This document shows, one piece after another, positions 6,570 to 47,310 of a DNA stretch of 64,000 bases (positions are counted from its first letter, which is position 1; each line of letters begins with the position of its first letter). This stretch comes from Alphaproteobacteria bacterium (GTDB taxonomy: Bacteria; Pseudomonadota; Alphaproteobacteria; RF32; CAG-239): contig DBFWPL010000019.1 of the NCBI GenBank assembly GCA_048463395.1, positions 2,668-66,667 on the forward strand, read 5' to 3'. Both the position numbers and the translations under genes were made by a program. The notes under the pieces are model-generated. The model made no database searches. It was not told the DNA's origin and worked only from the letters and a program-made list of their open reading frames with translations.

Positions 6570-6823
6570 TGCTCCTCTCCTTATAAAATCTTTTGCTAAA
6601 TTCCTTAGCAGTTTGCTTATACCTTAATCATAAAAGATTTATATTTACTTAACAATTCTGTCTTTAGGCATAATTTTATTTTTTTGATTATAACTTTTTG
6701 CATAAGGTCATATATCCAACTTCTGTTTTTTATATAATGAGTTTGTTTATTTTGCAATAAATGTTTTGCATTGGGGAAATCTTGCCTGATACCCGTTTAA
6801 CCCAAATAAATTGTCATGCAAAA

Positions 6824-7438: not shown

Positions 7439-7533
7439 GTTTAACCTCCAACACCCAAATAACTCCACACTTCCAGATTGAACGATTTTTTATTGTTTTT
7501 CAATTATGTCTTTAGTCATAATCATAAAAAAAC

Positions 7534-9242: not shown

Positions 9243-9267
9243 TTTTGATTTTGCTCCTTAAAATTAA

Positions 9268-10917: not shown

Positions 10918-10925
10918 TTGCCGAA

Positions 10926-13599: not shown

Positions 13600-13614
13600 C
13601 GTTTTATCCTTTTC

Positions 13615-15862: not shown

Positions 15863-15957
15863 ATTTATAATCCCTAAGCTGTATTTTGTCATATTTTTAC
15901 CTATCATACATATTGAAAATTAAATAATCAAGCACGACACTTCAGTTATTACCAAGG

Positions 15958-24366: not shown

Positions 24367-24443
24367 TAAGGATAATTGCCATTTATAAATGAGTGATTTT
24401 TTGCTATCATAGAAGTAACGGCAAAAGTCAGGTGGAGGTCAAA

Positions 24444-26822: not shown

Positions 26823-27616
26823 TGAAAAAAAATGTATTAATTCTCTTTTTCCTGTCCGTAATCAGCTTTTTCGAAACCAAAAACGCTGTCGCTGATATTG
26901 AGGCAGCTCAGGCTGTTTATGGTAATGTTGAAACAGGTGTAAAAGAAGCCACGGCAATTAAGGATGAATTGGGAAAAATACAGGAAGATATGCGTTCGGC
27001 AATGGAGGGGATTGCCGGACCGATAAAACAAGCCGTGGCAACAGGTATGGATGCGGCCGCTCAAGCCAAATCTGCGGCGGCTCAGGCTCAGTCCATGACT
27101 TCCGATCCGACCGGAACGGCAATGTCTGCTGTAGACGGAGGTTTGTCTTTGCCGTCTCTTAATCTTAAGCAGCCGAGCTTTTTAAAAGATGTGGATGATC
27201 AGGAAGAAACCTCCAAAGCAATTGTTGCCAATTATATGCTTCAAAGAGGAGCTTCCGTGGACGGAAAGCTGGATACCAATCAGGCCATGCAACTCCAGAA
27301 TGAAAAACTGATGGTTATTCAGCGAGATAATTTTGCCAAATTATATTCTTCGGCATTTACCATCCGAACCAACATGGCAAAGGAACGTCTGGCGGAAAAG
27401 AAAGATGTTCTCGGAGAATGTTCCAAAGAAAGCGATGGCAATTCCAATACCCGGTGTGTAAAATTGGCAATCAGAGAAAAGGCCGATACGACGGCTCGTC
27501 GCATGGGTCGTATTCTGGGGTTGGAATTGGCAATTTTCGAGTTGGAAATTACTCAGCAGGCCGGAGTTTATCAAAAACAGGCTGATGAAGATGATGGCGA
27601 TGAGAAAGAAGAATAA
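26819..27616 (+). CDS. secreted coiled-coil protein (possible second VirB5-like)
   Basis: 265 aa. Signal peptide. ATGA overlap with the upstream gene. Alpha-helical and Ala-rich. Confidence 0.4.
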   Translation: MMKKNVLILFFLSVISFFETKNAVADIEAAQAVYGNVETGVKEATAIKDELGKIQEDMRSAMEGIAGPIKQAVATGMDAAAQAKSAAAQAQSMTSDPTGTAMSAVDGGLSLPSLNLKQPSFLKDVDDQEETSKAIVANYMLQRGASVDGKLDTNQAMQLQNEKLMVIQRDNFAKLYSSAFTIRTNMAKERLAEKKDVLGECSKESDGNSNTRCVKLAIREKADTTARRMGRILGLELAIFELEITQQAGVYQKQADEDDGDEKEE

Positions 27617-27626
27617 GGGGGCTGGC

Positions 27627-32400: not shown

Positions 32401-34510
32401 AGGAAAACCGATAACCAAAATTGAAAAAGCGTCGCCTGAAAATGCTTCCGTTGCAGGAATAAAGGAAGCAACGCCAATTCTGGATTCCACTCAGAAAACA
32501 TATACGCCGATAAAGAAAGAAATCTCGACGACCGAAGTTCAGGAAGCTGTAGTAAAAACTTATACCCGCCAAATTGAAAAGCAGGAAAGCTATACTTATG
32601 ACGAAGATGGTTTGCAAATGAAAACGGCCAAGGAAAGCATAAGCGAAAGCGAGAAAGCGGCTGCCGTTGCCGGCAAAAATAAAGAAACGCTGCGTAAAGA
32701 TGTCAAAGCCAAAGAAAGCGAGATTGAAAAACTGCAGGAACAGCTGAAATCCGTTGAAGATAAAATAAAGAGTGTTGAACAGGCATATAATGTTCAGGTA
32801 CAGTTAATTGAAAACAATTATGTCGCTGATGTGGCGTCTGTCAAAGAGAAAATTGAAGAAGGACGGGTCGCTAAGCAAGTTGTGTCTTTGCTGGAACTCT
32901 ATAACAATGACATAAAAACAACGTTTAAAAACGCTTTGGGTTTGGTTGTACCGTCTCCGGTTCTTAACATTTTGAGCGAGACGGATGCAATCGTGGAAGA
33001 TACGAGAGATTATGCGGTATCGGCTGTCGAAAAAGCCAGAAGCGATATTATGAACCTCGGAGATGAACTCTATACGCCTAAAAGCAATAAATTGGTGGTT
33101 AAACGCCATGCAGAGTTAATGGATGAACTTAAAAGCCTTCCTGTCGAGCAATTAAGCAGTATTTCCAGTGCGATTAAGGCAATCTCCGGAAAGCCGGATA
33201 TCATCGGGTTGGTAACCGGGGTATACCAACAGGCTATGGTTAACCAAGCCTGCGGAGGAGACAGCTGTAAATCCGCAGATGATGACTATTTTGTCGGAAT
33301 TGTCGGTAAGGAACGTGATTTTAAAGCTCCGAAAGCGATACCGGAAGAATATCTTCCGCCGTTGAGGGAGTTTACCTTCTTTGATGATACGGATTATGAC
33401 AATGTTACCAGACTGGCTGATAATTCCATAACCAAAGACGGTTTCCTTAACAGCGGCAGCAAAATGCCGGAGATTTGGAAACTGATGCTTCGCCCGCATG
33501 CTTTTGTGGAAAAAGATATTGATTTAAGTTCTGCTCTGGATCTTGGCGGCGAGAATCTGACCTTTATGAGAGGCGGTATCCTGCCATGCCGTACAGAAGG
33601 AAAAATCTTAGATATCAATCCTGACGGCATGTATGTAGTTTATAAAAATGACGGAAGCGATATTCCTGAATGTAAAGAGCTGAAAATTGAAGGCAAAAGC
33701 GGGCTTCTCGGGAAGACATCTTACAATGTTATTGATATTGCCGAAGATGTAAAAGGACAGGCGATTGCCAAGGATAAAGCCGTTAATATCGGGACGACGC
33801 TGGCTCCGAAATGGATTACTCCAAAGCCGGATTCCGTAAATCCAAGCGAACTGGGTGTCCTTTTGCGGGCGGCAGACAATAATTTGTACTTTAACACTTC
33901 TGCCGTGAAGGTCTTTGAAAAACTAATGTCTGCTCAAAAAGAGATGAGTTCTGCCGGAAACAATTATGAAGTCAATATTGAAGATGAGGCATTCAAACGT
34001 GCTCTTCTGACTCAAAACCAAATCGGAAATTTCTTGAACTTTGTGGAACTTGAAAAAGGTTACCGTCAGGCAAAAGAAGAACTGGCTATAAGTATTGAAG
34101 AAGCTAAGGCAACATTGTTTGAAACGTTGAAAAAAGTCGGATTTACGCCGAATGAGAACCTGAATTTGGCTAATGAAGATGACTATGAGCTTGTTCGCGG
34201 ACAACTAGATCGTTTGAAAAACAAACTCGTGTCAGAGGGGTATGAAGGAATGGACGAAATAAAAACCACCGATAATATCGTGGTCGAAGAACGTCTTGAG
34301 AAACTTCAGCGAATTTTGGGGGCTTTACGAAAAGATAAAGATGAGTTAATCTCTATTTCGGAAGTAACACCGAGTGATGCCGAGCTGGATGAACAAATCA
34401 AGTCCGAAGAGGTTAATAAGAAAGTCAATGAAGAATACTCTAAAAAAGCTAAAGAAGCCTTTGAAAAACAATTGTCAGCCTTCCCTAGACCTTATTGTGC
34501 ATCTTACTGA
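29468..34510 (+). CDS. giant secreted coiled-coil protein (1680 aa)
   Basis: Signal peptide LCLSFSFGGTAMA. A long, predominantly helical and E/K-rich sequence with no TM. Translationally coupled (ATGA) to the upstream gene. Confidence 0.5.
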   Translation: MMTRLYKILFLLVAFLCLSFSFGGTAMAFIVPPGPVTPTIDGPTDVQFSLKGVGSAATNIQAQASAYMQEQTKLIKAAKKSYLDKFTGFMGGLFKKKEKKAIAGTKEIKETKIADIYDPESVYKAMYKLFLAYPTEKQDLMSCYRGKSVEFYQDTVIEVYTSVRQLETQLKELEVEINGLSEKLVAGKGGDGAESNEDDIGVWKNYYTAFETLDELLQITEELMAMKAQYVATKAVSQTIEPAAKVDKQSSLLDGKITDNEIVLAENKTVIRTFGEKVVLAQVLSKNTSAVKQQTIAPSTVGLIVKTPTSRAEAEAEALTRQRINFEAENNLTRTVSLSATSAAEEEDDEDYEYDPANNGFMDFVDAPPSNMKSPFDGNEEKMAELEKLNPVYEKSQEAMEVHNLMKSLPSYREMFEQYEQMKKLHEQSLKILKEADQCSIQFLGRYYNNPEQVWTGKPISDSQINEYDLRSGISGWAIKSFEVAKAEQTSPISMDDLTETEVDVDIDNSDLSSIEKNKEKYQKMSGSGLANPSKEEEIEKVDRETSMINWKIGAEAASLIVQDQYGSKPQWGTPSKKFPIWNDQKTFYTQYIDGKYNNIKEYLKNVDVNDVAIEIAFKLNDLVKDAEEKAYNAQELNKLSALITQKKNGEETVSASALQTLLDNKEKSLNEAKQAKETRLAGLLTQKEAINAKIDKASQYVKTYNQRINQLSQEAMEAQNEQETLNDLVQRLEEEEAENDKELFYTVKEEEEFDVEITPETEKETVTYETELKANVQKMAAPTTKAAVSSAPAANKTAKVTTVPSKNLKQIKKTETVAVKSIDKAKLQRREDLKNQMKNELNAASEANISASEFDELEAAPVLEKAVGKVNNSFRKRAVSPLEKQSSYRRLETIVLADVLNSNQVSAFKMDALDSIEQINDEARVNNAAKAELRDALSGRRPFTKETVTTISLQTSDAVPTKTEYKTITKLETAVVEGKPITKIEKASPENASVAGIKEATPILDSTQKTYTPIKKEISTTEVQEAVVKTYTRQIEKQESYTYDEDGLQMKTAKESISESEKAAAVAGKNKETLRKDVKAKESEIEKLQEQLKSVEDKIKSVEQAYNVQVQLIENNYVADVASVKEKIEEGRVAKQVVSLLELYNNDIKTTFKNALGLVVPSPVLNILSETDAIVEDTRDYAVSAVEKARSDIMNLGDELYTPKSNKLVVKRHAELMDELKSLPVEQLSSISSAIKAISGKPDIIGLVTGVYQQAMVNQACGGDSCKSADDDYFVGIVGKERDFKAPKAIPEEYLPPLREFTFFDDTDYDNVTRLADNSITKDGFLNSGSKMPEIWKLMLRPHAFVEKDIDLSSALDLGGENLTFMRGGILPCRTEGKILDINPDGMYVVYKNDGSDIPECKELKIEGKSGLLGKTSYNVIDIAEDVKGQAIAKDKAVNIGTTLAPKWITPKPDSVNPSELGVLLRAADNNLYFNTSAVKVFEKLMSAQKEMSSAGNNYEVNIEDEAFKRALLTQNQIGNFLNFVELEKGYRQAKEELAISIEEAKATLFETLKKVGFTPNENLNLANEDDYELVRGQLDRLKNKLVSEGYEGMDEIKTTDNIVVEERLEKLQRILGALRKDKDELISISEVTPSDAELDEQIKSEEVNKKVNEEYSKKAKEAFEKQLSAFPRPYCASY

Positions 34511-34525: not shown

Positions 34526-35284
34526 ATGAACGAAGCAAATAACAGACTGGAAGGGACAAAAGTTTTATCCATAACCGATGCGACCGGAGTTCAGCGAGAA
34601 TTCGCCAGTGAAGTGGAACAGGAAGTATCTGGATTTAAGCTTAAGTATTATATGTGGTTGTCCCGCTTGTTTGTTTTGTTTGCAGTGGCGTCTTTGCTGC
34701 TGTTTATGAGTGCATCCCTGTCTTTGTTTAAGCTGGCTCCGCAGGTTACGGTAGAACCGTTTTTAATCATCCAGCAGGATTCTTCTGAAGGAATTGTCCG
34801 TAATGAGCCGATTGAATACAATATGGCTTCTAAAAATCAGTTGATGGAGACCTTTGTTCGTCAATATGTTTTGCTTCGTAATACGATTATTTATGATGAA
34901 AAAGAAATGATGACCCGCTGGTATGGCGGCGGCATGCTTAATTTTCTCTCTGCTCCGAGGGTCTTTTCCGATTTTGAACAATATCGCGACAGTATTTGGA
35001 GCAAAATGCGGGAAGATGAGCAAGTTCGGGAAGTCGAGATTATTTCTATCGGAAAGCTTGGCGGAGAAAGAAGTCCGGTGTGGAAAGTCGATTTCAAAAC
35101 GTATGATTTGTCTGCGGTGGACAGAGACCAGAAGACAAAAGCCCAAATTTTGACGGTTCGCTATTGGACAGCCTCCGTTACGGCCTATTTTGTTCGGGAA
35201 CGTGTGTTTGTCGGTCTTCGCTTAATCAATCCTTTAGGTTTTACTGTTACAAGATATTCACAAACAGAGGTCGAAATTTTCTAG
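34526..35284 (+). CDS. virB8: VirB8-family protein, paralog a
   Basis: 252 aa. Cytoplasmic N-terminus, one TM (LFVLFAVASLLLFMSASLSLF) and a periplasmic NTF2-like domain with FVRQYVLLRNT and YWTASV motifs. Confidence 0.7.
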   Translation: MNEANNRLEGTKVLSITDATGVQREFASEVEQEVSGFKLKYYMWLSRLFVLFAVASLLLFMSASLSLFKLAPQVTVEPFLIIQQDSSEGIVRNEPIEYNMASKNQLMETFVRQYVLLRNTIIYDEKEMMTRWYGGGMLNFLSAPRVFSDFEQYRDSIWSKMREDEQVREVEIISIGKLGGERSPVWKVDFKTYDLSAVDRDQKTKAQILTVRYWTASVTAYFVRERVFVGLRLINPLGFTVTRYSQTEVEIF

Positions 35285-35388: not shown

Positions 35389-35577
35389 ATGTATAAAAGA
35401 TTTGTGATGCTTTTCCTCATCTTGCTGCTGACGGCCTGCGGAATTTTCGGTTCATATTATGAAGCCGAACCTGTTGGGGTTGGTAAAGGCGTGGACGAGC
35501 TGAAGTTGTCTCCGTGTGCTTGTATGCAGCTTGATTTGCCTAAAGATCTGCCCGATTGGTTTGTTGAAACAATCTAA
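35389..35577 (+). CDS. VirB7-like small lipoprotein
   Basis: 62 aa. Signal peptide with lipobox LTAC. Positioned between the VirB8 and VirB9 genes. Confidence 0.5.
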   Translation: MYKRFVMLFLILLLTACGIFGSYYEAEPVGVGKGVDELKLSPCACMQLDLPKDLPDWFVETI

Positions 35578-35598: not shown

Positions 35599-36333
35599 AT
35601 GGCAAATGCACTCGGCGGAAATAATACACAACAAAGATTAATCGGTAGCAGAGCTCAGTCTGCACCGAGAAATACTTCTCGTGCCAATGCGGATGTATTT
35701 GTTGCCAATGTGGCTGAAAAAAGATATTTGTGGACGGCTCGTGCTTTTGCGATTATCACGGCAATCAGTTTGTGCTGTAATGTCATTTTATTTTTAGCAA
35801 TTATGCAGGTTTTGCCGTTGTACCGTATTGAACCGTTTTTGTTGACGTTTCAAAATAGGCAGGAGCAGGTGTATAATATTCAGCCTGTCAAAGGCGATTT
35901 GGCTGATGAAAAAGCAATTACCGAAGTGTTTGTTCGCGAATATGTTCTGCTCCGCAGTTCATTTGATTTGGATATTCCGGAAATGGAGGCCCGTTGGATG
36001 CCGGGCGGCCCGATTCAGGAAATGTCTTCCGGTGCGGTTTACTCCGAATTCCTTGAAAAAACGGCCAAAAGAGCTCTGTCTATTATCCGCTCCAAGAGCA
36101 TGATAAGAAATGTTCGTATTTTGACGGTAAACGAACTGGGAAAAGGCTTATGGCAGGTGGAATACGAAACGCAGGATATGTATCCTGATTCGTCAACTCC
36201 GGAAATTAATTATTGGACGGCGTCTTTGCGGGTGGCTTATCGTAGGAAGAGTGTAAAATATGGCGAAAGGTTGAAAAATCCGGTAGGCTTTACAGTAGTT
36301 CGTTACTCACTGACATATAATAAAGTAAAATAA
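35599..36333 (+). CDS. virB8: VirB8-family protein, paralog b
   Basis: 244 aa. Same topology as paralog a, with FVREYVLLRSS and YWTASLRVAY motifs. Confidence 0.7.
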   Translation: MANALGGNNTQQRLIGSRAQSAPRNTSRANADVFVANVAEKRYLWTARAFAIITAISLCCNVILFLAIMQVLPLYRIEPFLLTFQNRQEQVYNIQPVKGDLADEKAITEVFVREYVLLRSSFDLDIPEMEARWMPGGPIQEMSSGAVYSEFLEKTAKRALSIIRSKSMIRNVRILTVNELGKGLWQVEYETQDMYPDSSTPEINYWTASLRVAYRRKSVKYGERLKNPVGFTVVRYSLTYNKVK

Positions 36334-36348
36334 AAGGTGTATTTCATA

Positions 36349-38040
36349 ATGGTTTTAAGAGCGGTTAAGATATTTTTTGTTGGGATGGTAATGCTGATAG
36401 CGGCCGGAAAAAATGCTTATTCTCAGGCAACTATGGGAAGTCTTGATCAAAATGCCGACCAAAGCCAGGGGCAGTATATGCCGATGAATATGGGGTATGC
36501 CGGATTTAATTCTTTGGGAATGGTGCAGAGTGCTTGGCTGGATCCGCTCCAGAATTTGGGGGAAGGGCAGTCTAAGCCGGCTTATTCCAGATATTATTGG
36601 TCTCCGGATTTGGTGTTGCCGATACGCCTTCGCGAAGGAATGATGACTTTGATTAATTTTCCGGAATGGGAAATGGTTGAAGATATGTTTATCGGTGATA
36701 ATTCCTCGTTTGACGGACAGATTACCGGTCCGAACACTATCTTGCTCTATCCTCGTAAGGGGGCTAACGTTGGTGTAGATACCAACATCATTATTTTCGG
36801 ACGTTCGGGAAACCGTTATGTTTTCTATGTTAAGAGCGAGGGTGTGAATACGGAACGTTTGACCAACTCCATTATTGATATTGACGTTATTGACGGCCCC
36901 TCGGGGTCGCGGGGTACCGGAGTAAACGGAACCCGCAGCAACGGCGGAAGAAGCGGGGTGAATGCCAGTTCTCTCAAGGGAGGAAGCGGTCTTTCGGTAG
37001 ATTCTACGTTTACCAAACGTTTTGGAAAAAATGACTGGATTAAAGAGATACCTCTGGATCCGACAAAGTTTAGATTTGATATTGAAGTTTACGTGCCGAA
37101 CCCTGATGATGTCGTGATTGCTCCGGAAAGAGTTTGGCGGGATGATATCTTTACCTATATCGATTTGGGCGAAAAAGCTCTGAATATGACACAGCGTCCG
37201 ATTGTAACGCTGATTGTGGAAAGAATTGAAGTGCCTGTTGGCTTTAGAACCAAAGGTCCGAATAATCGCTTGATTATTGTTGAGGGTATCGGCGATATGG
37301 TTATGAGGAACGGAAAACGTATTGTCTGTCTGAAAATGCGTCGTTCTGACGATTACGGTATGGAAATGGCAACCTATGCAACTGATTTTGAAGACAGTTC
37401 ATGGGATATTGCTCCGAAAATCCCTGGCGGACGTCAAGGCGGCGGACAAGGCGGAGCCGGATATGGCGGCGGTAACGGAGGTTTTGGCGGAGCCGGTTCT
37501 AACGAGGGATTTGATGAAGTCGGCGGAGATTCTCCTGGTGATTACGGAAATTATCCGGGAGCTCCGGGACAATATGACATTAAGGTCGGCAATAGCGAAA
37601 TTATTGCACGAAACAATGGTCAGGGGGGCGATGTCAGCGTCGGTTACCAGGGATCGGGACAACAAGGCGGAAACTTTGATTACTCAAAGATGCAGCGGAT
37701 TAGCAATAATCATAATTATAACAGCGGTGCTTTGGGCGGCAATGGTCAGTTCAGCTATGGTTCCGGATTCTCTGACAGTAGTTCCAACATCTCAATTGAG
37801 CTCGGAACAGATGCGGATGTCGGAAATCTTGAAAAATTATGGAGCGGTTTGACTAAGAAATATCCTGATATTCTCAATCGGTATGAACCGTTCTTCTCTG
37901 TAGATGCTCCGGCGGACGGGCAGGGTAAAGAATTGTTCCACTTACGAGTAGGACCGGTCGGTTCTCTTGATGACGGAGATTCCGTCTGCAGCAAACTCGG
38001 ACGAAACGGTGTATTTTGTAGTGTAGTCAGAACGCAATGA
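36349..38040 (+). CDS. VirB9/TrbG/CagX-like protein with Gly-rich linker and SPOR-like C-terminal domain
   Basis: Signal peptide, then a VirB9 N-domain (MMTLINFPEWEMVEDMFIGDNSSF...NRYVFYVKSEG). A G/Q/N-rich low-complexity region follows. The C-terminus FHLRVGPVGSLDDGDSVCSKLGRNGVFCSVV resembles SPOR peptidoglycan-binding domains. An ATG at 36349 is preferred over 36337. Confidence 0.6.
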   Translation: MVLRAVKIFFVGMVMLIAAGKNAYSQATMGSLDQNADQSQGQYMPMNMGYAGFNSLGMVQSAWLDPLQNLGEGQSKPAYSRYYWSPDLVLPIRLREGMMTLINFPEWEMVEDMFIGDNSSFDGQITGPNTILLYPRKGANVGVDTNIIIFGRSGNRYVFYVKSEGVNTERLTNSIIDIDVIDGPSGSRGTGVNGTRSNGGRSGVNASSLKGGSGLSVDSTFTKRFGKNDWIKEIPLDPTKFRFDIEVYVPNPDDVVIAPERVWRDDIFTYIDLGEKALNMTQRPIVTLIVERIEVPVGFRTKGPNNRLIIVEGIGDMVMRNGKRIVCLKMRRSDDYGMEMATYATDFEDSSWDIAPKIPGGRQGGGQGGAGYGGGNGGFGGAGSNEGFDEVGGDSPGDYGNYPGAPGQYDIKVGNSEIIARNNGQGGDVSVGYQGSGQQGGNFDYSKMQRISNNHNYNSGALGGNGQFSYGSGFSDSSSNISIELGTDADVGNLEKLWSGLTKKYPDILNRYEPFFSVDAPADGQGKELFHLRVGPVGSLDDGDSVCSKLGRNGVFCSVVRTQ

Positions 38041-41000
38041 GTAAAGAAGTATTAACACGTTCCGAAACTTATGTGAGAAAAACCAACCGCATTATTCTTG
38101 CGGTTGGTATCACTTCATTTGTAATCTTTATATTCGGTGTTATGCTTCTTATTCAAAGCAACGAGGTCGTTGATGATTATCAGGAACCTGTTTTTACGGA
38201 TAATGATGATGCTTTGAATATTGGCGAAGTCAAGCCTTTAGAAAATAATCTGGAGTTTGGAAATGTCGATGACGGAGAGATTCCGATTACGACAACCCCT
38301 AATCCCATTAATATGGGACAGGTAGTTTTGGGCACGGATGCCCGCAACGTACTGACAATCGGGACAAACGGCAAAGCATCAATCACGATTAGTTCCGTAC
38401 AATTGGCTGAACCTCCGTTTGACGGCTTCAGTTTCCATGACGATTGCAGCGGAAAAACGCTAAGGGGGAATGAGCATTGCGATATTACCATGTCTTGGGT
38501 GCCGATTGTTCCGGGAAACGTTCAAAATAACTTTATCGTTTCATGGCATGAATCAAACTTAAGCGTCAGCAATGCAAAATCTGAAAAAATTACAGTGGAC
38601 GGAAATGCCATTCGTAAAGAAGATTGTAATTTTTGTGAAACGGCTTTGCCTAAAGATGGCAATGATGAACAGAAAAATGCTTCTAAATTACGGGCAATTA
38701 TAGGGCCGAACGGAGAAATCATCGGTTATGCGGATGAAGACGGTTATGTTCGCGACAAAAACGGCAATATTATCGGTCGGGTCAACGCAAACGGCATGGC
38801 TGTTGATGAGGATGGTAATATTATCGGTGTCGCAGATAATCGAAAACTTGTGTATGACGAGTTTGGTAATGTTATCGGTTATGTAAATCCTGACGGAACG
38901 GTTGTTGATAAAGACGGCAATGTTATCGGAAGAATGCTTCCGGACGGAACCGTCGTTGACGCTAACGGCAATGTGATCGGCAAGGCGGTAGATGCCGGTT
39001 ATGTGTATGATAAAGACGGTAATATTATTGGTCGTGTTCTTCCGGACGGAACCGTCGTTGACATGGATGGCAATGTAATCGGCCGTTTGAACGAAAACGG
39101 CGAAGTCGTTGACGCCAATGGCAATGTGATTGGCTATGTCAGCAAACCGGGACGTGTGGCCGTTGATGAAAACGGTAATATTTTAGGCGTGGTTATGCCA
39201 AACGGAGCCGTTGTTGATGCTAATGGCAATGTGGTTGGTTATGTAGACGAGAACGGCAATGTTGTTAAAGACAAAACATTGGGAAGCAACCGCCGTTTTG
39301 CTTACGATAAAGACGGCAATATTATCGGTTATATTGATGAAAACGGCAATGTGATTGATGCCGACGGCAATATTATCGGTCGGATGTTGGAGGACGGAAC
39401 CATTGTCGATTTAGACGGTAATGTGATTGGCGAAGCCGGAGATGTTACTGTCGGTCCTCAGCGGCGTTTGGCATATGATAAAGACGGCAACGTAATAGGT
39501 TATATTGACGAGAACGGCAATGTCGTTGATTTTAACGGCAATATTATCGGAAAAATGCTTGAAGACGGTACCCTTGTTGACCTAGACGGAAATATCATTG
39601 GAAAAGCCGGAGAATTTGTCAATCTGGCATTGGATAAATATGGTAATGTCATTGGTTATGTCAAACCGGACGGAACGATTGTCGATAAAAACGGGAAAGT
39701 CATCGGTAAAGTGTCGGATATGACTGTCGGTCCTCAGCGGCGTTTGGCATATGATAAAGACGGCAACGTAATAGGTTATATTGACGAGAACGGTAATGTC
39801 GTTGATTTTAACGGCAATATTATCGGAAAAATGCTTGAAGACGGTACCCTTGTTGACTTAGACGGAAATGTCATCGGCAGAGCCGGAGAATATGTCAATT
39901 TAGCGTTGGACAAGAATGGAAAGGTTATCGGCTATGTTAGTGCGGATGGCAAGGTTTATGATTTGAACGGTAATGAAATAGGCTATATTGACGAGAATGG
40001 CAATATTGTAAGTAATGAGCGTTATAAAATCGGAGGTTTGGTTGAAACACAAATGATTCCAATAACCGCTTCGGGTGAAGTCTTAGGAACAGTCAACAAT
40101 AACGGTACGGTTGAGAATGACAGGCAACAGGTTGTAGGACGTATTCTGTCCAACGGCTTAGTAAAAGATCCGTCCGGTTCAAAAGTGATTGCCCGTTTAG
40201 TTCGGGGTGGTTTGGTTGTCGGTTATGGTTGTAAAAATATCGGTTATCTGGAAAGAGACGGAAAAATCCGCAAATCTAATCAGGATACGGGATATAAAGT
40301 CAATAGTAACGGGATTGTAACAGACAGTTCCGGAGCTTATATAGGGGAAGTTGTTTCTCCGGGAAAAGTTTTTGATAATTCCTGCACGCTTTTGGGTGAG
40401 GTCGGCACGGACGGTATTGTTCGCGGCGGTTCCAACAACTACGTCGGCTGTGTCAATCCGGACGGAACGGTCCTGGATGAAAAAGGCGATATTATCGGCG
40501 GTACGGTTAAAAGCGGAATAGCCCTTTCTTATGACGGAGAATATCTCGGTAAAGTTTCTTCGGACGGCTTGGTTATTTCTCCGGCCTTGCTTCCGGTCGG
40601 CTGTGTCGGAACCTACGGCGATGTTTTCAGCCGAAACGGCGGCTACATCGGAAAAATTTTAGAAAACAAATATGCTTTTGACCTGGACGGCAACTTCCTG
40701 AATATGGTCGGTGAAGACGGACGGGTTTATGTGGCCGGGCAGGCTCCGTCCAGATTATTGGCCAATAATCTGATTGTTGATGATAATAATACGATTATCG
40801 GTATGGCTATGGGTGAGAAAACAACAATTGTCAGTCCGGACGGCAAGGTTCTCGGACGTCTGTTCCCAGACGGATATGTTTACAGCGATAAAGGCGTGGC
40901 TGTCGGCAAAATCAGCGGCGACGGCATGAGCTTTTATAATAAGCAAATCGGCCGGCCGATGCCGAAAGGCGAAGTTGTTGATTTTAACGGCAAACGTCTC

Positions 41001-41897
41001 GGAATAGTCAGCGGAGACGGAACGGTAGTAAACCGTTTTGGCGAAACACTCGGTAAAATTGATGCCAAAGGGACATTGTTGGATTATAAGGGGGAATATA
41101 AAGGTGCAGCTTTGTTGCGAGGAGCCGCGATTGGTTATGACGGAGCTTATCTGGGATACAGTCTGGCTGACGGAAGTATTATTAATCTTGATGGAAAAAA
41201 TGAAGGAAAAGCCAGTGCGGATGGTAAGGTTTTAGATGATAAAAATAATGTCATCGGCGAGATTCTTCCGGAAAACATCGTAGTTGATATCTGGGGTAAT
41301 TATAAAGGCCGCGTAAACTCTCTGGGAGATGTGTTCGATTTGAAAAATGACAACATTACCGCTATTTTGCCGGGCGGTTCCACGGATAAAAACCTCAGTC
41401 TCTTGAAACGGGGAGCTGTCATAGACTTTGGCGGCAACGTTATCGGTTCCGTAGCTCCTGACGGACGGGTAATTGATACGGAAAATGTGGCAATCGGCAG
41501 AGTTCTGTCTGACGGAAACGTGATCAGCCGAGCTGGAAAATTAATCGGAGAAGTGGTTGACGGTGATATTGTTATTGATAACTCTGATAAAGTTGTGGGA
41601 TATGTTAATTTTGATGGTAAAATCATCGGCAAGGATAAGAGCGTTATCGGTCGAGCTTTATCGGGAGACTTGGCAATTGACAACAACGACAACATTCTGG
41701 GCAGAATTTATAAAATAGGGGCGACTATTTTAGGAAATGACGGAAACTACGTCGGACGTTTGTCTCCGGAAGGCGAAGTTATCGACGCAAACGGTAAGAA
41801 CATCGGCTACATCAAAAATAACGGCTCTTTTATAGATTTGGATAAAAAAGTATCGGGTTATGCCCTTCAGGAAGTGGCTAAAAACCGGAGGAACTGA
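38037..41897 (+). CDS. bitopic inner-membrane protein with giant array of 11-residue (xDxxGNVIGxV) repeats; N-terminal half of a split CagY-like VirB10
   Basis: 1286 aa. Cytoplasmic N-terminus plus TM (IILAVGITSFVIFIFGVMLLI). Then about 100 tandem degenerate 11-aa repeats (DKDGNIIGRVLPDGTVVDANGNVIG...). ATGA overlap with VirB9. Confidence 0.6.
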   Translation: MSKEVLTRSETYVRKTNRIILAVGITSFVIFIFGVMLLIQSNEVVDDYQEPVFTDNDDALNIGEVKPLENNLEFGNVDDGEIPITTTPNPINMGQVVLGTDARNVLTIGTNGKASITISSVQLAEPPFDGFSFHDDCSGKTLRGNEHCDITMSWVPIVPGNVQNNFIVSWHESNLSVSNAKSEKITVDGNAIRKEDCNFCETALPKDGNDEQKNASKLRAIIGPNGEIIGYADEDGYVRDKNGNIIGRVNANGMAVDEDGNIIGVADNRKLVYDEFGNVIGYVNPDGTVVDKDGNVIGRMLPDGTVVDANGNVIGKAVDAGYVYDKDGNIIGRVLPDGTVVDMDGNVIGRLNENGEVVDANGNVIGYVSKPGRVAVDENGNILGVVMPNGAVVDANGNVVGYVDENGNVVKDKTLGSNRRFAYDKDGNIIGYIDENGNVIDADGNIIGRMLEDGTIVDLDGNVIGEAGDVTVGPQRRLAYDKDGNVIGYIDENGNVVDFNGNIIGKMLEDGTLVDLDGNIIGKAGEFVNLALDKYGNVIGYVKPDGTIVDKNGKVIGKVSDMTVGPQRRLAYDKDGNVIGYIDENGNVVDFNGNIIGKMLEDGTLVDLDGNVIGRAGEYVNLALDKNGKVIGYVSADGKVYDLNGNEIGYIDENGNIVSNERYKIGGLVETQMIPITASGEVLGTVNNNGTVENDRQQVVGRILSNGLVKDPSGSKVIARLVRGGLVVGYGCKNIGYLERDGKIRKSNQDTGYKVNSNGIVTDSSGAYIGEVVSPGKVFDNSCTLLGEVGTDGIVRGGSNNYVGCVNPDGTVLDEKGDIIGGTVKSGIALSYDGEYLGKVSSDGLVISPALLPVGCVGTYGDVFSRNGGYIGKILENKYAFDLDGNFLNMVGEDGRVYVAGQAPSRLLANNLIVDDNNTIIGMAMGEKTTIVSPDGKVLGRLFPDGYVYSDKGVAVGKISGDGMSFYNKQIGRPMPKGEVVDFNGKRLGIVSGDGTVVNRFGETLGKIDAKGTLLDYKGEYKGAALLRGAAIGYDGAYLGYSLADGSIINLDGKNEGKASADGKVLDDKNNVIGEILPENIVVDIWGNYKGRVNSLGDVFDLKNDNITAILPGGSTDKNLSLLKRGAVIDFGGNVIGSVAPDGRVIDTENVAIGRVLSDGNVISRAGKLIGEVVDGDIVIDNSDKVVGYVNFDGKIIGKDKSVIGRALSGDLAIDNNDNILGRIYKIGATILGNDGNYVGRLSPEGEVIDANGKNIGYIKNNGSFIDLDKKVSGYALQEVAKNRRN
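39440..40000 (+). repeat. two near-identical ~280-bp tandem DNA repeats inside the repeat array
   Basis: gtcggtcctcagcggcgtttggcatatgataaagacggcaacgtaataggttatattgacgagaacgg... occurs at about 39447 and again at about 39727, with only a few mismatches over roughly 280 bp. Confidence 0.8.
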
Positions 41898-41899
41898 GT

Positions 41900-44800
41900 T
41901 TGAAACAGAATAGTTTTTATAGTTTTTTCAGCAAACTTGCCCAAACTTTCAGTGTTGCGGCAATTTGTTGTTTTATGTCTGTTTCTTTAGCTCAAGCTCA
42001 AGAAATTACGGCAATAGATTTTAACGGCGATTTGTTGGGTAAGGTTATTCCGGATGGTAAAGTCGTTAGTCTGGACAACCAATTGATAGGTAACGTTACC
42101 GCCGACAGCTTGATTGTAAATTTTGACGGCGAACTGATAGGTGGTGTCGTCCCGCAGGGAATTGCCATCGGTAACGATAATAAATTGCTGGGTAAGGTAA
42201 ACAATGACGGTTCCGTTCGTATGTCTTCCGGAAAAATTATCGGTAAAGTCTTGCCGACCGGCTTGGTTATTGATGATTATTTTGACGTTATCGGTGCAGT
42301 TTTGTTTCCGGGCTTGGTTTATTCAGACGGTGGACAGACAGTCGGACGTTTGACCGGAGACGGTTTGTATACTAACTTGCAGGGACAGGAAATCGGCTTC
42401 ATATCTCCTGACGGCTACGCTTACCGCCGTGTCGGGACGGATTATGTGCTTGACGGACGCCTGATTTCATCCAAGATGGTGGTTTCCGAAAGCGGAGAGT
42501 TTATCGGCAGTGTTACTCCGGGAGGAAATATTACAAATTTTGATGCTGCAACAATTGGTTTTATCAAGGCAAACGGTTTTGCCTATAATGAGAATAATAC
42601 AATTATCGGCCGTATTGTGCGTTCGGGATATGCTTTTGACAATTTCGGACGTTATATTGGTTTTGTAACTTATAACGGGGAAGTTCTGGATAAAGACAAA
42701 TTGGTCGGACATTTGCGTTCTGATGGTAAAATCGCCGGAGAAAAGGATGATATCATAGGTTTTAGCGTTGATATCTCGGCAACGGCAACGGATTCTACCG
42801 GAAAGTTTTTGGGACGCATTATGCCGGACGGAAAAATTTATCGGGCCAGAGAAGAAGCCGGAATACTGGGTGCGAGGGGCATTATCTATAATAAAGACGG
42901 CAATGCCGTCGGCCGTATTATTCAATCCGGTCCGGTTTTTGATTATAAAGGCTCCCTAGTAGCTCATGCATTGAAAAACGGTAAAGTCATTTTGTTGGAA
43001 GGTACTCCGGCAGGCTATGTTATCGGCAACAAGGCATTTGATAATAACGGACGTTTGAGCGGAGCGACAATGGATGAGCTTTTGGTTGTTAACGGCAATA
43101 ACAAGGCTTTGGGAATTGTCGGAATTAATGCTTCTGTCTTTGACGGAGAAGACCGCCGCATTGTTTCTCCGTTTGGATATGTTTTTAATACGGATGGCAG
43201 TATTAACGGTGCAGCTCTGCCTTTGGGGGCGATATACAATATCAGCGGTATTCCTGTTTCTGAAATTTCCCCGAACGGAGAATTGTATAACAAAGGGAGT
43301 CTGGCTCTGGGAAAATTAACTCAGACAGGTGTCAATATTGACGAGAGAAATAGGATTCTCGGTAAGAACGTTTGCCCTCTCTTTGCTGTGGATGAATCCG
43401 GAAATTCTCTGGGAAATATGTCAGAAGGTAATCTGGTTTTGAATAAAGGCTTGAAAATTACCGCGAAAATTTTGCCGGATAATTCCGTTGTTCCGACATC
43501 CTCCGATGATTCCGTCGATTTAAGCCCGAAAACGGGAAATGCTTATCAAAATAATATTGTAATAAGCTATACCGGAAACCTTTTGGGATACACAAATGAC
43601 GACGGCAGTGTCCGCGACTTTAACGGAAACCGCTTGGGGAAAGTTGTCGGACAGGGCATGGTTGTTGATAATAACGGGTCTGTTATCGGCGGACTGATTG
43701 GATTTGATACGGTAGTTGATGATGATTGTGTAGTCATCGGCGTGGTTGATCCGAAAGGTGAAATTAGAAATTTCCGTAATGTCAGCATGGGAAAGGTTTT
43801 GTTAAACGGACAGGCTGTTTCCGAAAACGGAAATTATATCGGTTATGCAGTTAATGCCCGTTCGGTAGTTGATTATAGCGGCAATATTCTTGGCGTTGCC
43901 TCTGCCGACGGTCGGGTGTTAAACTATGCGGACGAACAATTGGGATGCCTGAATAAGAAAAAACTTTTGAAAAATGCCGATAATACGATCATTGGCGGCA
44001 ATGTTGAATATTCTCCGGTTATGAATTTTAACGGAACGATTATCGGCCGTGGAATTTTGGATGGTTCTGTTGTCAATGATAAAAATATGGTTATCGGTTA
44101 TATGCAACCAGACGGCAATATAAACTCCAAAACCGGAGTTCCTATAGGAGATTTATTTAAATATAAGGTTGCTTTTGACGATAATAACAAATTTATCGGC
44201 CGGGTTTTGGAAAACGGAAAGGTTGTCAATGCCGGAAACGAAGAAATCGGACAAGTTGATTTTATCGGTTATGTTTTAGGCAAAGACGGAGCCAAAATCG
44301 GCTATGCATTATATGATTTTTATGTTTATGACAATAATTTCTCCGTTATGGGATATATTAACAAGGACGGCACGGTTCTTTCCCTGTTGGGGCAAAAACT
44401 CGGAACGCTTGACCGTGGTTTTCTGATTGATCGGGGCGGACAGGTTATCGGTCGCGGTAATCGTGATTTTTATATCCGTGATGAAAGTAATTTGGTTCTG
44501 GGTGAATTAAACTTGGATGGTGAACTGGTTAATGTTTCGGGAGAAATTATCGGCACCATAAACAAAGAAGGTAATATTTTGGACAGCGAAGGCAAAACGA
44601 TTGCCACGGCTAAACCTTTGCAGTTTTATAACCTGACGTTAGACCGCCAAAAAGTCTATGACGAAAACGGAAACCTCATAGGTTACGTAAACAAAGACGG
44701 CAGTGTTGTTGATGAAAACGGCAAACTTATCGGTCTGGTAAATGATGACGGCATTGTCATTTCGGCCAACGGCAACATCATTGGCGGAACATCCCTTGAC

Positions 44801-46327
44801 TGGTATGAAAAAGCCCCGCAAACAGCACCTAAAGACGACAAACTTCCTGAGGTTGGGGTCAATGAATATCAGGAAATCAAAGAACAATATCGCAAATCTT
44901 TGGGAATAGCTCTGACTCCGGACGGAGAATACCTTGGCGAAATTATGGAAGACGGCAATGTCGTGGACAAGAACGGAAAAGTCTTGGGACATAAAATGCC
45001 GGACGGGTTGGTTATAGATGATGACGGAACTTTAATCGGCATTGAAGAAGCCGGCAAACCGAACACGGACGGAATGTTTATTCCGGCGGGAACTTTCGGC
45101 AGCGGCGGAGCTTACGGCGTAGGTAACGGTTCCGGAACCAACTTGGGACCTGGAGGCGGTTTTGGTCCGGGAGAGCGTTACGACCCTCAGCGTGCGGCTG
45201 CTCTGGATGCTGCACAAAACCAGCGTCGTCAGGGAATGGCTGTCGGTAGAATCAGTACTAATATCAGAAAAGAAGCCTTTGACGGTTACCAGAAAAACTG
45301 GGATGAACAAGGTGTTTCCAAAGCCATTTCTTCATGGCGGGTTAAGTTAGACGAGATGATTTTTGCAGACAAACCTATTCCGGCCGTATTGTCTCGCTCT
45401 ATCGACAGCAACAACCCGACCCCGATTACCGCTTTTGTGGAAAGAAATATTTATGCTGAAGAAGGCCGAAACATCATTATTCCGGCAGGAAGCCGTCTGG
45501 TGGGAACTTTGGGCGGTCTGACCGGAACGACGGAAACCACGTCCCAATCTGCTAAAGTCCAAATTTCTTGGGAACGTTTGATTCGTCCAGACGGTGTTTT
45601 GTTTACCTTTGCCGGTATCACCGCGGACGCTCAAGGTCGTGGCGGTGCTCTGGGTTATTTGGATCAGCAGCTGTTTAAGAAATATACTTTGCCGATTATG
45701 ACCACGGCGTTGACCAGTTATACGTCTTATTTAATGGCTGATGACGACAAGAGCAGCGGAGAGACTGAAAGCTCCAGACAACAGGCCGCCAATGACGCTC
45801 GTCAAAACTTCCTGAATGAAATGAATCAGGTGTTTGAACAAATCTTGGCGGACAAGACAAACATCAAACCGCTGACTTATGTTCCTGCCGGTACCAGAAT
45901 TATTGTCTTCCCGAATGTTGATTTGTGGATGAGAACCGAAGAACGTGATGCGGAAGCAAGTACCGGACAGGGTAGTAAGAAAGATGTCTTTATTGATGAC
46001 GAAAAAGTAACCAATGACAGAAAACTGCAAGAAAACAAGCGTGCCGTCAATATCAGTGCAAGTTCTGCGTCTCAGGCCGGAAATGTCTTGTATGAAGCTG
46101 ATGATGCAGGTATTGAGGCTGTTGACGCTCCGCCTAAACTGATTGACGACAGCAGTGTCAAGAACAAGAAAAAAGCCAAAGGTCAACCGACCAATCCTGG
46201 TTTGGTAAGCGGCAGCACACCACCTCCGCCGCCGACGTATTCGACAACTCCGGGAGCCAATAACGCTTCCTCTGGAAGTTCCGGCAGCAGCCAAAACAGC
46301 GACAGTAGTGTTCCTCAATTATTCTGA
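41900..46327 (+). CDS. VirB10/TrbI/CagY-family protein: signal peptide + repeat array + C-terminal VirB10 domain
   Basis: TTG start 2 nt after the upstream stop. Sec-type signal SVAAICCFMSVSLAQA. About 1000 aa of the same repeat family. The C-terminal domain has NIIIPAGSRLVGTL...LTYVPAGTRIIVFPNVDL, the TrbI/VirB10 signature. Confidence 0.75.
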   Translation: MKQNSFYSFFSKLAQTFSVAAICCFMSVSLAQAQEITAIDFNGDLLGKVIPDGKVVSLDNQLIGNVTADSLIVNFDGELIGGVVPQGIAIGNDNKLLGKVNNDGSVRMSSGKIIGKVLPTGLVIDDYFDVIGAVLFPGLVYSDGGQTVGRLTGDGLYTNLQGQEIGFISPDGYAYRRVGTDYVLDGRLISSKMVVSESGEFIGSVTPGGNITNFDAATIGFIKANGFAYNENNTIIGRIVRSGYAFDNFGRYIGFVTYNGEVLDKDKLVGHLRSDGKIAGEKDDIIGFSVDISATATDSTGKFLGRIMPDGKIYRAREEAGILGARGIIYNKDGNAVGRIIQSGPVFDYKGSLVAHALKNGKVILLEGTPAGYVIGNKAFDNNGRLSGATMDELLVVNGNNKALGIVGINASVFDGEDRRIVSPFGYVFNTDGSINGAALPLGAIYNISGIPVSEISPNGELYNKGSLALGKLTQTGVNIDERNRILGKNVCPLFAVDESGNSLGNMSEGNLVLNKGLKITAKILPDNSVVPTSSDDSVDLSPKTGNAYQNNIVISYTGNLLGYTNDDGSVRDFNGNRLGKVVGQGMVVDNNGSVIGGLIGFDTVVDDDCVVIGVVDPKGEIRNFRNVSMGKVLLNGQAVSENGNYIGYAVNARSVVDYSGNILGVASADGRVLNYADEQLGCLNKKKLLKNADNTIIGGNVEYSPVMNFNGTIIGRGILDGSVVNDKNMVIGYMQPDGNINSKTGVPIGDLFKYKVAFDDNNKFIGRVLENGKVVNAGNEEIGQVDFIGYVLGKDGAKIGYALYDFYVYDNNFSVMGYINKDGTVLSLLGQKLGTLDRGFLIDRGGQVIGRGNRDFYIRDESNLVLGELNLDGELVNVSGEIIGTINKEGNILDSEGKTIATAKPLQFYNLTLDRQKVYDENGNLIGYVNKDGSVVDENGKLIGLVNDDGIVISANGNIIGGTSLDWYEKAPQTAPKDDKLPEVGVNEYQEIKEQYRKSLGIALTPDGEYLGEIMEDGNVVDKNGKVLGHKMPDGLVIDDDGTLIGIEEAGKPNTDGMFIPAGTFGSGGAYGVGNGSGTNLGPGGGFGPGERYDPQRAAALDAAQNQRRQGMAVGRISTNIRKEAFDGYQKNWDEQGVSKAISSWRVKLDEMIFADKPIPAVLSRSIDSNNPTPITAFVERNIYAEEGRNIIIPAGSRLVGTLGGLTGTTETTSQSAKVQISWERLIRPDGVLFTFAGITADAQGRGGALGYLDQQLFKKYTLPIMTTALTSYTSYLMADDDKSSGETESSRQQAANDARQNFLNEMNQVFEQILADKTNIKPLTYVPAGTRIIVFPNVDLWMRTEERDAEASTGQGSKKDVFIDDEKVTNDRKLQENKRAVNISASSASQAGNVLYEADDAGIEAVDAPPKLIDDSSVKNKKKAKGQPTNPGLVSGSTPPPPPTYSTTPGANNASSGSSGSSQNSDSSVPQLF

Positions 46328-46341
46328 CAGGAGAATGGGAA

Positions 46342-47310
46342 ATGAGTTTTAAAGTATTGGAATCAGTGTTAAGGCCGTTATCTTATTGGTATAATCAGGA
46401 TAATATCGAAGAAGTTGCCATCAACCGCTCCGGTCAGATTTGGCTGCGTCTTCGCGGCAAAAGAGCTTATCCGTGGGTAATGTATAAAGATGAAAAATTA
46501 TCCAAAGAATATCTGGTGGATTTGCTCTATATCATTGCCAATACGTACGAGTTGCCGTTTGATCCGGTTCAGGGGACACCGGTCGTGTATGCGACAATTC
46601 CGGGAGAACATCGTTTTTCAGCTATTGCCGGTCGAAACGTTATGTATGACCAAGACGACCTGACCGGAGGTGTGGCGATTGCCATCCGTCTTCATAGTGA
46701 AGATGTTGCGTTCGGCTTGCAGGATTACGGTTTAAGCCAGGGCTCGGGGTTGCATAAGATTAATCCGTTAAAGGATATTAAAGACCCGGAAGACCCGTAT
46801 GAACGTCTTTTGCTCAGTTTAAAACGCGGTGATCATATTTTAGTCAGCGGTGCAACCTCAACCGGTAAAACCACGTTCTTAAATAACTTGCTTAAGATTT
46901 TGGACATCAATAAACGTATTGTAACGATTGAAGATACCCGAGAACTCTTGGTGCCGCACCCTAACCGCGTTCACCTTGTATTATCTCGTACCGAACAAAC
47001 CAATGCCATGGACTATAGCAAAATCATCGACTTGGTGGTACGTTTTACGCCTGATGCCATCATCGGCGGTGAGATTTCCACCAGCAATGCCGGAGCCTTG
47101 TGGGAACTGATGGGATCCGGACACGATAACTGTTTGGCAACAATCCACGCCGAGAGCTCCGAAGCTGCTTACAAGGCCTTTACCGACCGTATTTTGCACA
47201 CGTATCCGACAATTGACAGAGTAAAAACCATTGAAGAAATGCATAAAAAGCTCCGTGTCGTGCAAATTAACCGTGATGGCAACTTGCGTGCTATTACCGA
47301 AGTTACTTAA
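46342..47310 (+). CDS. virB11: VirB11/TrbB-family T4SS ATPase
   Basis: 322 aa. Walker A VSGATSTGKTTFLN, IIGGEISTSNAGALWELMGSGHDNCLATIHAES (His box) and an N-terminal domain of VirB11 type. Confidence 0.85.
   Translation: MSFKVLESVLRPLSYWYNQDNIEEVAINRSGQIWLRLRGKRAYPWVMYKDEKLSKEYLVDLLYIIANTYELPFDPVQGTPVVYATIPGEHRFSAIAGRNVMYDQDDLTGGVAIAIRLHSEDVAFGLQDYGLSQGSGLHKINPLKDIKDPEDPYERLLLSLKRGDHILVSGATSTGKTTFLNNLLKILDINKRIVTIEDTRELLVPHPNRVHLVLSRTEQTNAMDYSKIIDLVVRFTPDAIIGGEISTSNAGALWELMGSGHDNCLATIHAESSEAAYKAFTDRILHTYPTIDRVKTIEEMHKKLRVVQINRDGNLRAITEVT

Follow-up and report, generated by a model that had tools for sequence, protein, structure and literature searches.

A giant beta-flower-repeat VirB10 probably divided by an ancient gene fission into a membrane-anchored and an exported protein in gut Alphaproteobacteria

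A typical VirB10 protein is about 380-450 amino acids (aa) long and bitopic, with an N-terminal transmembrane (TM) helix and a short Pro-rich linker on a single chain, and it serves as an envelope-spanning strut and energy sensor that passes ATP-driven conformational changes to the outer-membrane gate of a type IV secretion system (T4SS). In the T4SS operon studied here, the virB10 slot is filled by two adjacent giant open reading frames (ORF1 and ORF2), which raises the question of whether they are a damaged gene, one polypeptide joined by recoding, or two proteins into which a VirB10 has been divided. The operon lies in a stretch of 64,000 nucleotides (nt) on the forward strand of contig DBFWPL010000019.1 (positions 2,668-66,667; hereafter the window, to which all coordinates refer). 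A first-pass annotation of this DNA had proposed that a CagY-like giant VirB10 is encoded in two parts, a repeat protein anchored in the membrane and a separately secreted protein with repeats and a VirB10 domain; on re-reading, the ORF coordinates that it gave, the TGA stop and the TTG start two nt later were all present. With good though not complete confidence, we propose that ORF1 and ORF2 arose when a giant virB10 gene with beta-flower repeats underwent an ancient fission that is now fixed, and that their operon encodes a chromosomal, P-type, rvh-like T4SS of an uncultured animal-gut alphaproteobacterium.

The evidence begins at the junction between the two ORFs. A GGAGG sequence sits 8 nt 5' of the TTG codon, within the NRRN codons of ORF1, and the ORF2 frame is closed by a TAA at 41879-41881, six codons before the TTG, as had been noted in the first pass. 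A scan of GTDB with one genome per species found relatives in 255 species, and the details given here come from the best 80 of these 255, all of them metagenome-assembled genomes (MAGs) of animal-gut Alphaproteobacteria (the sources include human, mouse, chicken 'Candidatus Scatocola', deer, Hadza samples and 'CAG:495'). Ruminant guts are also among the habitats of these widespread, uncultured bacteria, and one MAG from a water-deer caecum is colinear with the window at about 87% DNA identity. The junction could be assessed in 73 species, and the two-gene form was found in every one of them. In 72 complete loci, where the gene in front of virB10 could be examined, the ORF that encodes VirB10 measures 1420-2366 aa and comes after another, separate ORF of about 1070-1580 aa; it is the upstream ORF that carries the ORF1 N-terminal module (N-module; 54-97% identity) in 72 of 72 cases, and no VirB10 ORF does so. 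Moreover, five metagenomic loci whose ORF2 homologues are 54-74% identical show the order VirB9, ORF1-like protein (1141-1304 aa), VirB10 (1475-1711 aa) and VirB11, with a gap of 1-2 nt between the two halves. Across the 73 species the ORF1 stop is constant in position and free in identity (TAA in 29, TAG in 26, TGA in 18), the relative frame of the VirB10 ORF is +1 in 28, +2 in 25 and 0 in 20, and GGAGG occurs within the last 16 nt of ORF1 in 65. Since neither the stop codon nor the frame is constrained, in contrast to the site of the stop, the ORF1 tail and the Shine-Dalgarno (SD) sequence, which are kept, a sequencing error, a pseudogene and a conserved recoding signal are ruled out.

We give virtually no credence to the idea that one long virB10 has been broken by a frameshift error in sequencing or assembly, which had already been doubted in the first pass, or by a recent mutation that made it a pseudogene: MAG-type data can carry indels and the ORFs are just 2 nt apart, but the identical split recurs in all 73 independently assembled species and in many metagenomes, the stop always follows ...KNRRN with three different codons and a downstream ORF in three frames, and a signal peptide that unsplit proteins lack always comes next. 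Very unlikely too, though slightly less so, is a single polypeptide, whether through readthrough of the stop codon or through a programmed -1 frameshift at T-AAA-AAC (41879-41885). This idea draws on the A-rich heptamer between the upstream TAA of the ORF2 frame and the ORF1 stop, and on the 20 of 73 species in which both ORFs share a frame; yet the heptamer is not conserved (AAGAACC in loci L005 and L006), and the varying frame fits no single recoding mechanism, and on these two grounds the -1 frameshift at T-AAA-AAC was rejected. Additionally, fusion would leave a conserved signal peptide, one that obeys the cleavage rules, embedded within a periplasmic array, and what is conserved instead is a strong SD sequence with a start codon. 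The junctions indicate that ORF2 is separately initiated and translationally coupled to ORF1, and the split is genuine rather than an artefact and is fixed across the gut clade.

What was split can be seen from relatives in which the gene is whole. A search with ORF1 as the query retrieved proteins of 1930-2251 aa from Alphaproteobacteria MAGs that carry beta-flower repeats and a TrbI domain on one chain. Their N-termini are homologous to ORF1 (Y-x-K-K-x-N-R tail, TM helix, ASH domain, CxxC or conserved Cys pairs), and their C-termini are homologous to ORF2 through the final ...LF, so that N-module, array and TrbI domain are joined in one chain; this agrees with the earlier proposal of a giant VirB10 divided into an anchored and an exported half. 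In loci L007 and L008 the unsplit gene stands directly between virB9 and virB11 with no ORF1-like gene, in the same slot behind virB8-virB7-virB8-virB9 as in the window. The unsplit proteins (for example P0157 of 2201 aa and P0192 of 2213 aa) contain no internal stop, SD sequence or signal peptide, and in databases they appear as 'DUF3659 domain-containing protein', '5-fold beta-flower protein' or 'TrbI/VirB10 family protein'. When 233 retrieved proteins were sorted by N-module, signal-peptide head and VirB10 domain, 136 had the split form (signal-peptide head plus VirB10 domain, the latter 58-100% identical to that of the window), about 58 the unsplit form (N-module plus VirB10 domain, 41-54% identical) and 35 were of the ORF1 type (N-module only, no VirB10 domain), the remaining 4 being fragments without N-module and signal-peptide head, two of which carry the VirB10 domain; none of the 233 mixed the features of two classes. 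Such a distribution would fit one early fission event in the common ancestor of a single clade.

The course of the fission can be traced in part. Against a hidden Markov model (HMM) built from 55 unsplit sequences, ORF2 is colinear from about position 359 to the end, and ORF1 maps to positions 4-397 and then repeatedly onto the N-proximal array; in pairwise alignments the ORF2 head matches unsplit residues of about 320-470 with 36-46% identity. The reliable anchors are the correspondence of ORF1 1-410 to unsplit 1-400, that of the ORF2 head to about 320-660, and the mutual match of the C-termini. Taken together, ORF1 and ORF2 exceed the unsplit forms by about 525 residues. The two ORFs resemble each other at the level of the repeats (about 27%), and the ORF1 tail and the ORF2 head are 30% identical, values that are not decisive for a recent overlap duplication. 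Most likely, we infer, the gene would have been cut shortly behind the first flowers, and segments of the array would have been duplicated along with this. Beside the unsplit gene, locus L008 contains two adjacent mTERF-domain (PF02536) genes at 25063-26642, the mTERF family being best known from eukaryotic organelles.

If a VirB10 was divided, its membrane anchor should be sought in ORF1, and the first-pass assignment of a cytoplasmic N-terminus and one TM segment to this protein was upheld by a single strong hydrophobic helix at aa 19-37 (Kyte-Doolittle hydrophobicity 2.76). The cytoplasmic tail motif Y[VLI][KR]K[TS]NR is conserved and is present in the unsplit giants too. For ORF1 aa 1-420, AlphaFold2 (AF2) predicts, from an alignment of 34 homologues, a helix at 8-40, disorder at 42-79, a beta-sandwich at 84-192 (predicted local distance difference test score, pLDDT, 82-90) and regular hairpins at 219-403 (pLDDT 80-89); Cys137, Cys148, Cys197 and Cys200 are invariant. 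The ORF1 sequence matched no solved structure in the PDB; for the flowers this is because, to our knowledge, no solved beta-flower structure exists. Among the 150 matches listed from 1.8 billion representatives, the full N-module occurs only in ORF1-type and unsplit VirB10 proteins, and no short repeat-free VirB10 carries it. The ASH-type immunoglobulin (Ig) domain by itself (ORF1 aa 84-176) also recurs in up to 35 tandem copies in giant proteins of 1000-5600 aa, such as P0234 (4358 aa; search of the 1.8-billion-protein library), and, to judge from these matches, is a common building block of large bacterial surface proteins.

The N-terminus of ORF2 is of another kind. Its hydrophobic segment is weaker than the ORF1 helix (Kyte-Doolittle 1.77) and ends with AQA in front of QE, the predicted mature N-terminus being QEITAIDFNGDL. 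Among 75 ORF2 sequences, one per species, position -1 is A, S or G and position -3 is A, V, L, T or S in 100% of cases, such that the Sec signal peptide recognised in the first pass obeys the -3/-1 rule in 75 of 75. The uncharged core of the h-region has a median length of 14 residues; mean pairwise identity is 18% before the mature start and 81% over the first 60 mature residues, which open with the conserved [QIAEVL]EITA[IV][DN]F. The ORF2 N-terminus is probably a cleaved Sec signal peptide and not a membrane anchor. The opposite view appears improbable to us: the segment would remain uncleaved as a signal anchor, which would make ORF2 by itself a full bitopic VirB10, with ORF1 as an additional inner-membrane partner that arose by partial duplication and resembles DotF. 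Sequence alone cannot separate Sec signal peptides from signal anchors with certainty, from about its residue 360 to the end the unsplit protein is colinear with ORF2, and the ORF1 array is largely paralogous; nevertheless, the h-region is short and weakly hydrophobic (1.77 vs 2.76), small residues occupy -1 and -3 throughout, the conserved mature sequence begins exactly after AxA, and the Y-x-K-K-x-N-R tail and ASH domain of unsplit VirB10 are found on ORF1 only.

The other end of ORF2 holds the domain that places the pair in the VirB10 family. As the first-pass annotation had recognised, ORF2 aa 1154-1343 (a segment that includes VPAGTRIIVFPNVDL) matches the Pfam family TrbI (PF03743), with 117.1 bits against a cut-off of 35. 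The NCBIfam models match below their equivalog cut-offs (VirB10 104 vs 220; ComB10 113 vs 300), and ORF2 is therefore a divergent member of the family. Sequence matches in the PDB are ComB10 (1.3e-20), CagY, TrwE, TraF and Xanthomonas VirB10. In the AF2 model of ORF2 aa 990-1400, terminal hairpins are followed by a disordered Gly-rich linker and a beta-barrel with long helices at 1256-1279 and 1292-1321, and the top 24 matches of this model in a Foldseek search of the PDB are all VirB10-family C-terminal domains (TrwE, CagY, Xanthomonas VirB10, ComB10, TraF, F-plasmid TraB and DotG), with template-modelling scores (TMt) mostly of 0.5-0.68 and of 0.36 for chains of the CagX-CagY complex. Hence ORF2 has the TrbI match, the barrel-and-antenna fold and the slot between virB9 and virB11 that mark VirB10 proteins, but not the bitopic topology, as a cytoplasmic tail and TM helix in addition to the barrel are found only in ORF1 and ORF2 taken as a pair. 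A variable Ser/Pro/Gln tail follows the barrel in every VirB10 of the family, split or unsplit (window, P0157, P0166, P0192, P0231), and its nearly invariant aromatic termini (PQLF, PELF, EQLF, DKLF, KSYF) recall a C-terminal outer-membrane targeting signal.

Between these termini, both proteins consist of one family of repeats extending over about 1000 aa each, as had been proposed in the first pass. The period of 11 residues that it gave has to be corrected to 17, since its motif xDxxGNVIGxV is only the conserved core of a 17-residue unit, GNVIGrvlPDGTVVDxD, which corresponds to one beta-hairpin. The repetition clearly exceeds what chance would give: residue self-identity peaks at lags of 17, 34 and 51 (0.2-0.36 vs about 0.1 at other lags) over ORF1 aa 220-1280 and ORF2 aa 35-1050, DNA repeat families are spaced by 51 nt and its multiples, and the core D-K-D-G-N-V-I-G is visible in the tiled units (e.g., GNVIGRMLPDGTVVDKD). 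The repeats match the Pfam families Bflower_2 (PF21785) and Bflower (PF21784), both of clan CL0395, and DUF3659 (PF12396); Bflower_2 covers 13 stretches of ORF1 (E 7e-86, 283.9 bits) and 7 of ORF2 (E 2e-59, 198.7 bits), the cut-off being 38. Structure prediction of the array gives the regular hairpins described above for ORF1. The beta-flower was defined in 2023 purely from AlphaFold models as a shallow barrel of 4, 5 or 6 hairpin 'petals' (PMC10584680), with an [DNEQ]xxG motif at the petal tips and no known function (PMC10584680; Durairaj et al., 2023).

The arrays are not uniform, either along their length or between strains. The hairpins of ORF1 are canonical at aa 226-660 and degenerate beyond, and a 276-nt tandem duplication (39392-39667 and 39668-39943; 86% identical) adds 92 aa, or five hairpins, and its unit would be one five-petal flower. 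Of 70 species, only about 30% have residues 441-560 of ORF1 (39357-39716), and about 68% have residues 401-440. Moreover, among variants of one lineage, ORF2 homologues with 99.8-99.9% identity are set apart by stretches of canonical hairpins, 58 and 141 aa long, that were inserted in frame. A comparison between strains, as suggested in the first pass, thus shows the number of repeats to be still in flux. An apparent one-hairpin polymorphism (17 aa, between variants of 1553 and 1570 aa) was rejected as a difference in start-codon calling. Larger pairs, with an ORF1-like protein of about 1400 aa and a VirB10 of 2081-2366 aa, occur in loci L022, L028, L030, L031 and L037 and amount to about 3500 aa of VirB10-derived protein per protomer pair. 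The conservation profile (mean identity to the window proteins, 70-75 species) falls to 0.35-0.6 in the middle of the arrays and rises to 0.69-0.76 in the ORF1 tail (aa 1081-1286), as against 0.48-0.6 in the middle of its array, to 0.75-0.87 in the ORF2 head (aa 34-193) and mostly to 0.76-0.85 in the VirB10 barrel; the ORF2 head is therefore as conserved as the barrel. The terminus of the ORF1 tail, GY[AV]LQEVAKNRRN, is near-invariant, its last 6 residues having an identity of 0.99.

Given a fission of this kind, we postulate that ORF1 would stay in the inner membrane with its short tail toward the ATPases, while ORF2 would cross by the Sec pathway, be cleaved and join VirB9 and VirB7 in the outer-membrane core. 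The halves would be held together again without a covalent bond, the conserved tail of ORF1 and head of ORF2 being the likeliest contact, and would so replace the covalent strut of an ordinary VirB10; the two periplasmic arrays, with about 24 flowers per protomer pair and a 14-fold or so arrangement per machine, might then make up a very large periplasmic scaffold. The fission would have been accompanied by partial duplication of the array, such that ORF1 comprises the first 400 or so residues and its own paralogous array, and blocks of canonical hairpins would have been gained and lost, as they still are between near-identical strains. In its full form, in which VirB10 is here two docked proteins and hundreds of flowers per machine build a giant periplasmic cage whose length is tuned by the repeats, the idea is speculative, and we lean somewhat against it. 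A different arrangement would leave the halves uncoupled, with ORF2 as an outer-membrane core subunit, ORF1 in a separate periplasmic role (cell-wall binding, or as a spacer) and the membrane coupling of VirB10 lost. We find this unlikely, but less so than the other alternatives: no covalent link joins the halves and the VirB9 of this locus has a weak SPOR-like domain, yet gene adjacency and translational coupling (ATGA with virB9, SD sequence inside the ORF1 tail) are kept in 73 species, and the ORF1 tail and ORF2 head are the conservation peaks of their arrays.

Several observations count against the fission of a giant virB10 in a working T4SS, or against parts of that proposal. The re-association of the halves is suggested by sequence conservation. 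The closure of each array into what would be roughly twelve five-petal flowers is predicted from the Pfam match and the 92-aa duplication, and the AF2 confidence for the VirB10 region is moderate (mean pLDDT 62; barrel about 80). Reciprocal HMMs allow several competing mid-array placements, because repeat alignments slide, which leaves the exact fission point ambiguous. Finally, no virD4 follows virB11 and none is recognisable anywhere in the 64-kb window, nor was a multi-TM virB6 recognised in it.

Features of the T4SS operon and of ORF1 and ORF2 (positions in the window)
Feature	Position	Strand	Residues or length	Details
virB2 (two copies), then an 859-aa ORF, then virB4		+		5' part of the T4SS operon
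Four consecutive ORFs	24393-34510	+	809, 265, 628 and 1680 aa	inside the T4SS operon, between virB4 and virB8
virB8, first copy	34526-35284	+
VirB7-like lipoprotein	35389-35577	+	62 aa	lipobox LTAC; between both virB8 genes
virB8, second copy	35599-36333	+
virB9 homologue	36337-38040	+	567 aa	Pfam CagX, E 6e-11; same position in all related loci
ORF1 ('VirB10-N' half)	38037-41897	+	1286 aa	ATG start; TGA stop at 41895-41897
Cytoplasmic tail and TM helix	38037-38156	+	aa 1-18 and 19-40	Kyte-Doolittle, AF2
ASH/PapD-like (MSP-fold) Ig domain	38286-38612	+	aa 84-192
ORF1 beta-flower array	38691-41855	+	aa 219-1273, ~60 hairpins	Pfam, lag-17 periodicity, tiling, AF2
Copy-number-variable block of ORF1	39237-39943	+
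Conserved ORF1 tail	41277-41894	+	aa 1081-1286	conservation profile
Junction	41887-41902	+		GGAGG 41887-41891, TGA 41895-41897, 2-nt GT spacer, TTG 41900-41902
ORF2 ('VirB10-C' half)	41900-46327	+	1475 aa	TTG start
Sec signal peptide of ORF2	41900-42001	+	aa 1-34	predicted cleavage between AQA and QEITAIDFNG
ORF2 beta-flower array	42002-45046	+	aa 35-1049, ~60 hairpins	Pfam, conservation profile, tiling
Gly-rich disordered linker	45053-45175	+	aa 1052-1092	AF2 pLDDT <50
VirB10/TrbI beta-barrel domain	45359-45928	+	aa 1154-1343	Pfam, PDB sequence matches, AF2/Foldseek
Two-helix antenna	45665-45862	+	aa 1256-1321	AF2
Low-complexity Ser/Pro-rich C-terminal tail	45935-46327	+		conserved ...LF end; last two residues identity 0.99
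virB11 ATPase	46342-47310	+		14 nt 3' of ORF2; NCBIfam VirB11, E 1.6e-40

The gene order virB8-virB7-virB8-virB9-virB10-virB11 is that of Rickettsia rvh islet C (PMC2653234), and the virB9 stop overlaps the ORF1 start (ATGA). The virB9 product is unusually long, with a Gly/Gln-rich low-complexity linker and a weak C-terminal match (E 2e-3) to SPOR-like, peptidoglycan-binding domains, which is likewise seen in the VirB9 of L005 and L006. The lipoprotein signal of the VirB7-like ORF is MYKRFVMLFLILLLTAC, and an ORF of 62-69 aa is found at the same place in every related locus. Each of the four ORFs between virB4 and virB8 has a signal-peptide-like N-terminus, no Pfam match and no additional TM segment. 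Near the operon, a 1260-aa protein (55874-59656, minus strand) combines Peptidase_M23 with a VgrG3-like C-terminal (peptidoglycan hydrolase) domain and could be an antibacterial effector or a VirB1 stand-in. A type IVb-pilus-like cluster (3193-15907, minus strand) adjoins the operon on the opposite strand and contains TcpQ, a secretin, PilO (PAP_PilO), a T2SSE ATPase, T2SSF and a second, T2SSE/PilT-like ATPase.

The organisms concerned are uncultured but widespread Alphaproteobacteria that live in the guts of humans, mice, chickens and ruminants, and in at least 73 of their species VirB10 would have its membrane anchor on one protein and its outer-membrane pore on another. The covalent bridge would then be either dispensable or replaceable by the repeat arrays, and split and unsplit sister lineages offer the comparison. 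The locus is also a third independent massive repeat expansion in VirB10, after CagY and DotG, again with strain-level change in copy number, and it places the beta-flower fold in a defined cellular machine for the first time. Should the docked two-protein VirB10 prove true, it would give this fold its first functional context and provide a natural 'split VirB10' for the model of energy transduction.

Compared with canonical VirB10/TrbI proteins (Agrobacterium tumefaciens VirB10, pKM101 TraF, R388 TrwE, Helicobacter pylori ComB10), the pair shares the C-terminal barrel, the two-helix antenna and the slot in the operon, with ComB10 as the best solved-structure match in sequence and TrwE, CagY and TraF as the best in fold (TMt about 0.65). 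Unlike in these proteins, the TM helix is on a separate polypeptide, the barrel chain starts with a predicted cleavable signal peptide, and the inserted beta-hairpin repeats add up to about 2000 aa. The likeness to H. pylori CagY drawn by the first-pass annotation stands as far as both are giant VirB10 homologues with large repeats before the VirB10 domain and in-frame changes in copy number; it does not extend to the repeats, which here are beta-flower hairpins (no CagY-repeat family appeared in the Pfam scan at E <= 0.01), nor to the single polypeptide of CagY. Outside the C-terminal domain the resemblance is convergent. Legionella and Coxiella DotG (IcmE) likewise has a VirB10-family domain behind a repeat region whose size varies by recombination (PMC6761968), and it pairs with a second inner-membrane-anchored periplasmic partner, DotF, an arrangement similar to that of ORF1 and ORF2. 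However, DotG has pentapeptide repeats and its own TM anchor, and DotF is not derived from DotG; the Pfam scan of the ORFs found no pentapeptide family, and DotG appeared as a weak fold match at Foldseek ranks 22 and 24. The unsplit gut relatives differ from the pair in having one chain, with a VirB10 domain only 41-54% identical. Beta-flower proteins described elsewhere consist for the most part of one small flower (about 96 aa) and are known only as AlphaFold models (PMC10584680), as against about 12 flowers per T4SS subunit here. The Rickettsiales rvh system shares the duplicated virB8 flanking a virB7 lipoprotein gene, the succession of virB9, virB10 and virB11, and a duplicated virB2, but RvhB10 is an ordinary single VirB10, and the window has no virD4 after virB11 and no recognisable multi-TM virB6 paralogues. 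No publication that we found reports a VirB10 built of beta-flowers or encoded in two pieces. The novelty suggested in the first pass appears to hold for the arrangement and for repeats unlike those of CagY, but the repeat family was already in Pfam, and the arrangement belongs to a whole clade rather than to one genome. The repeat family and the VirB10 domain were known before, and the proteins stand in databases under automatic names; the split arrangement and the beta-flower VirB10 appear to be new.

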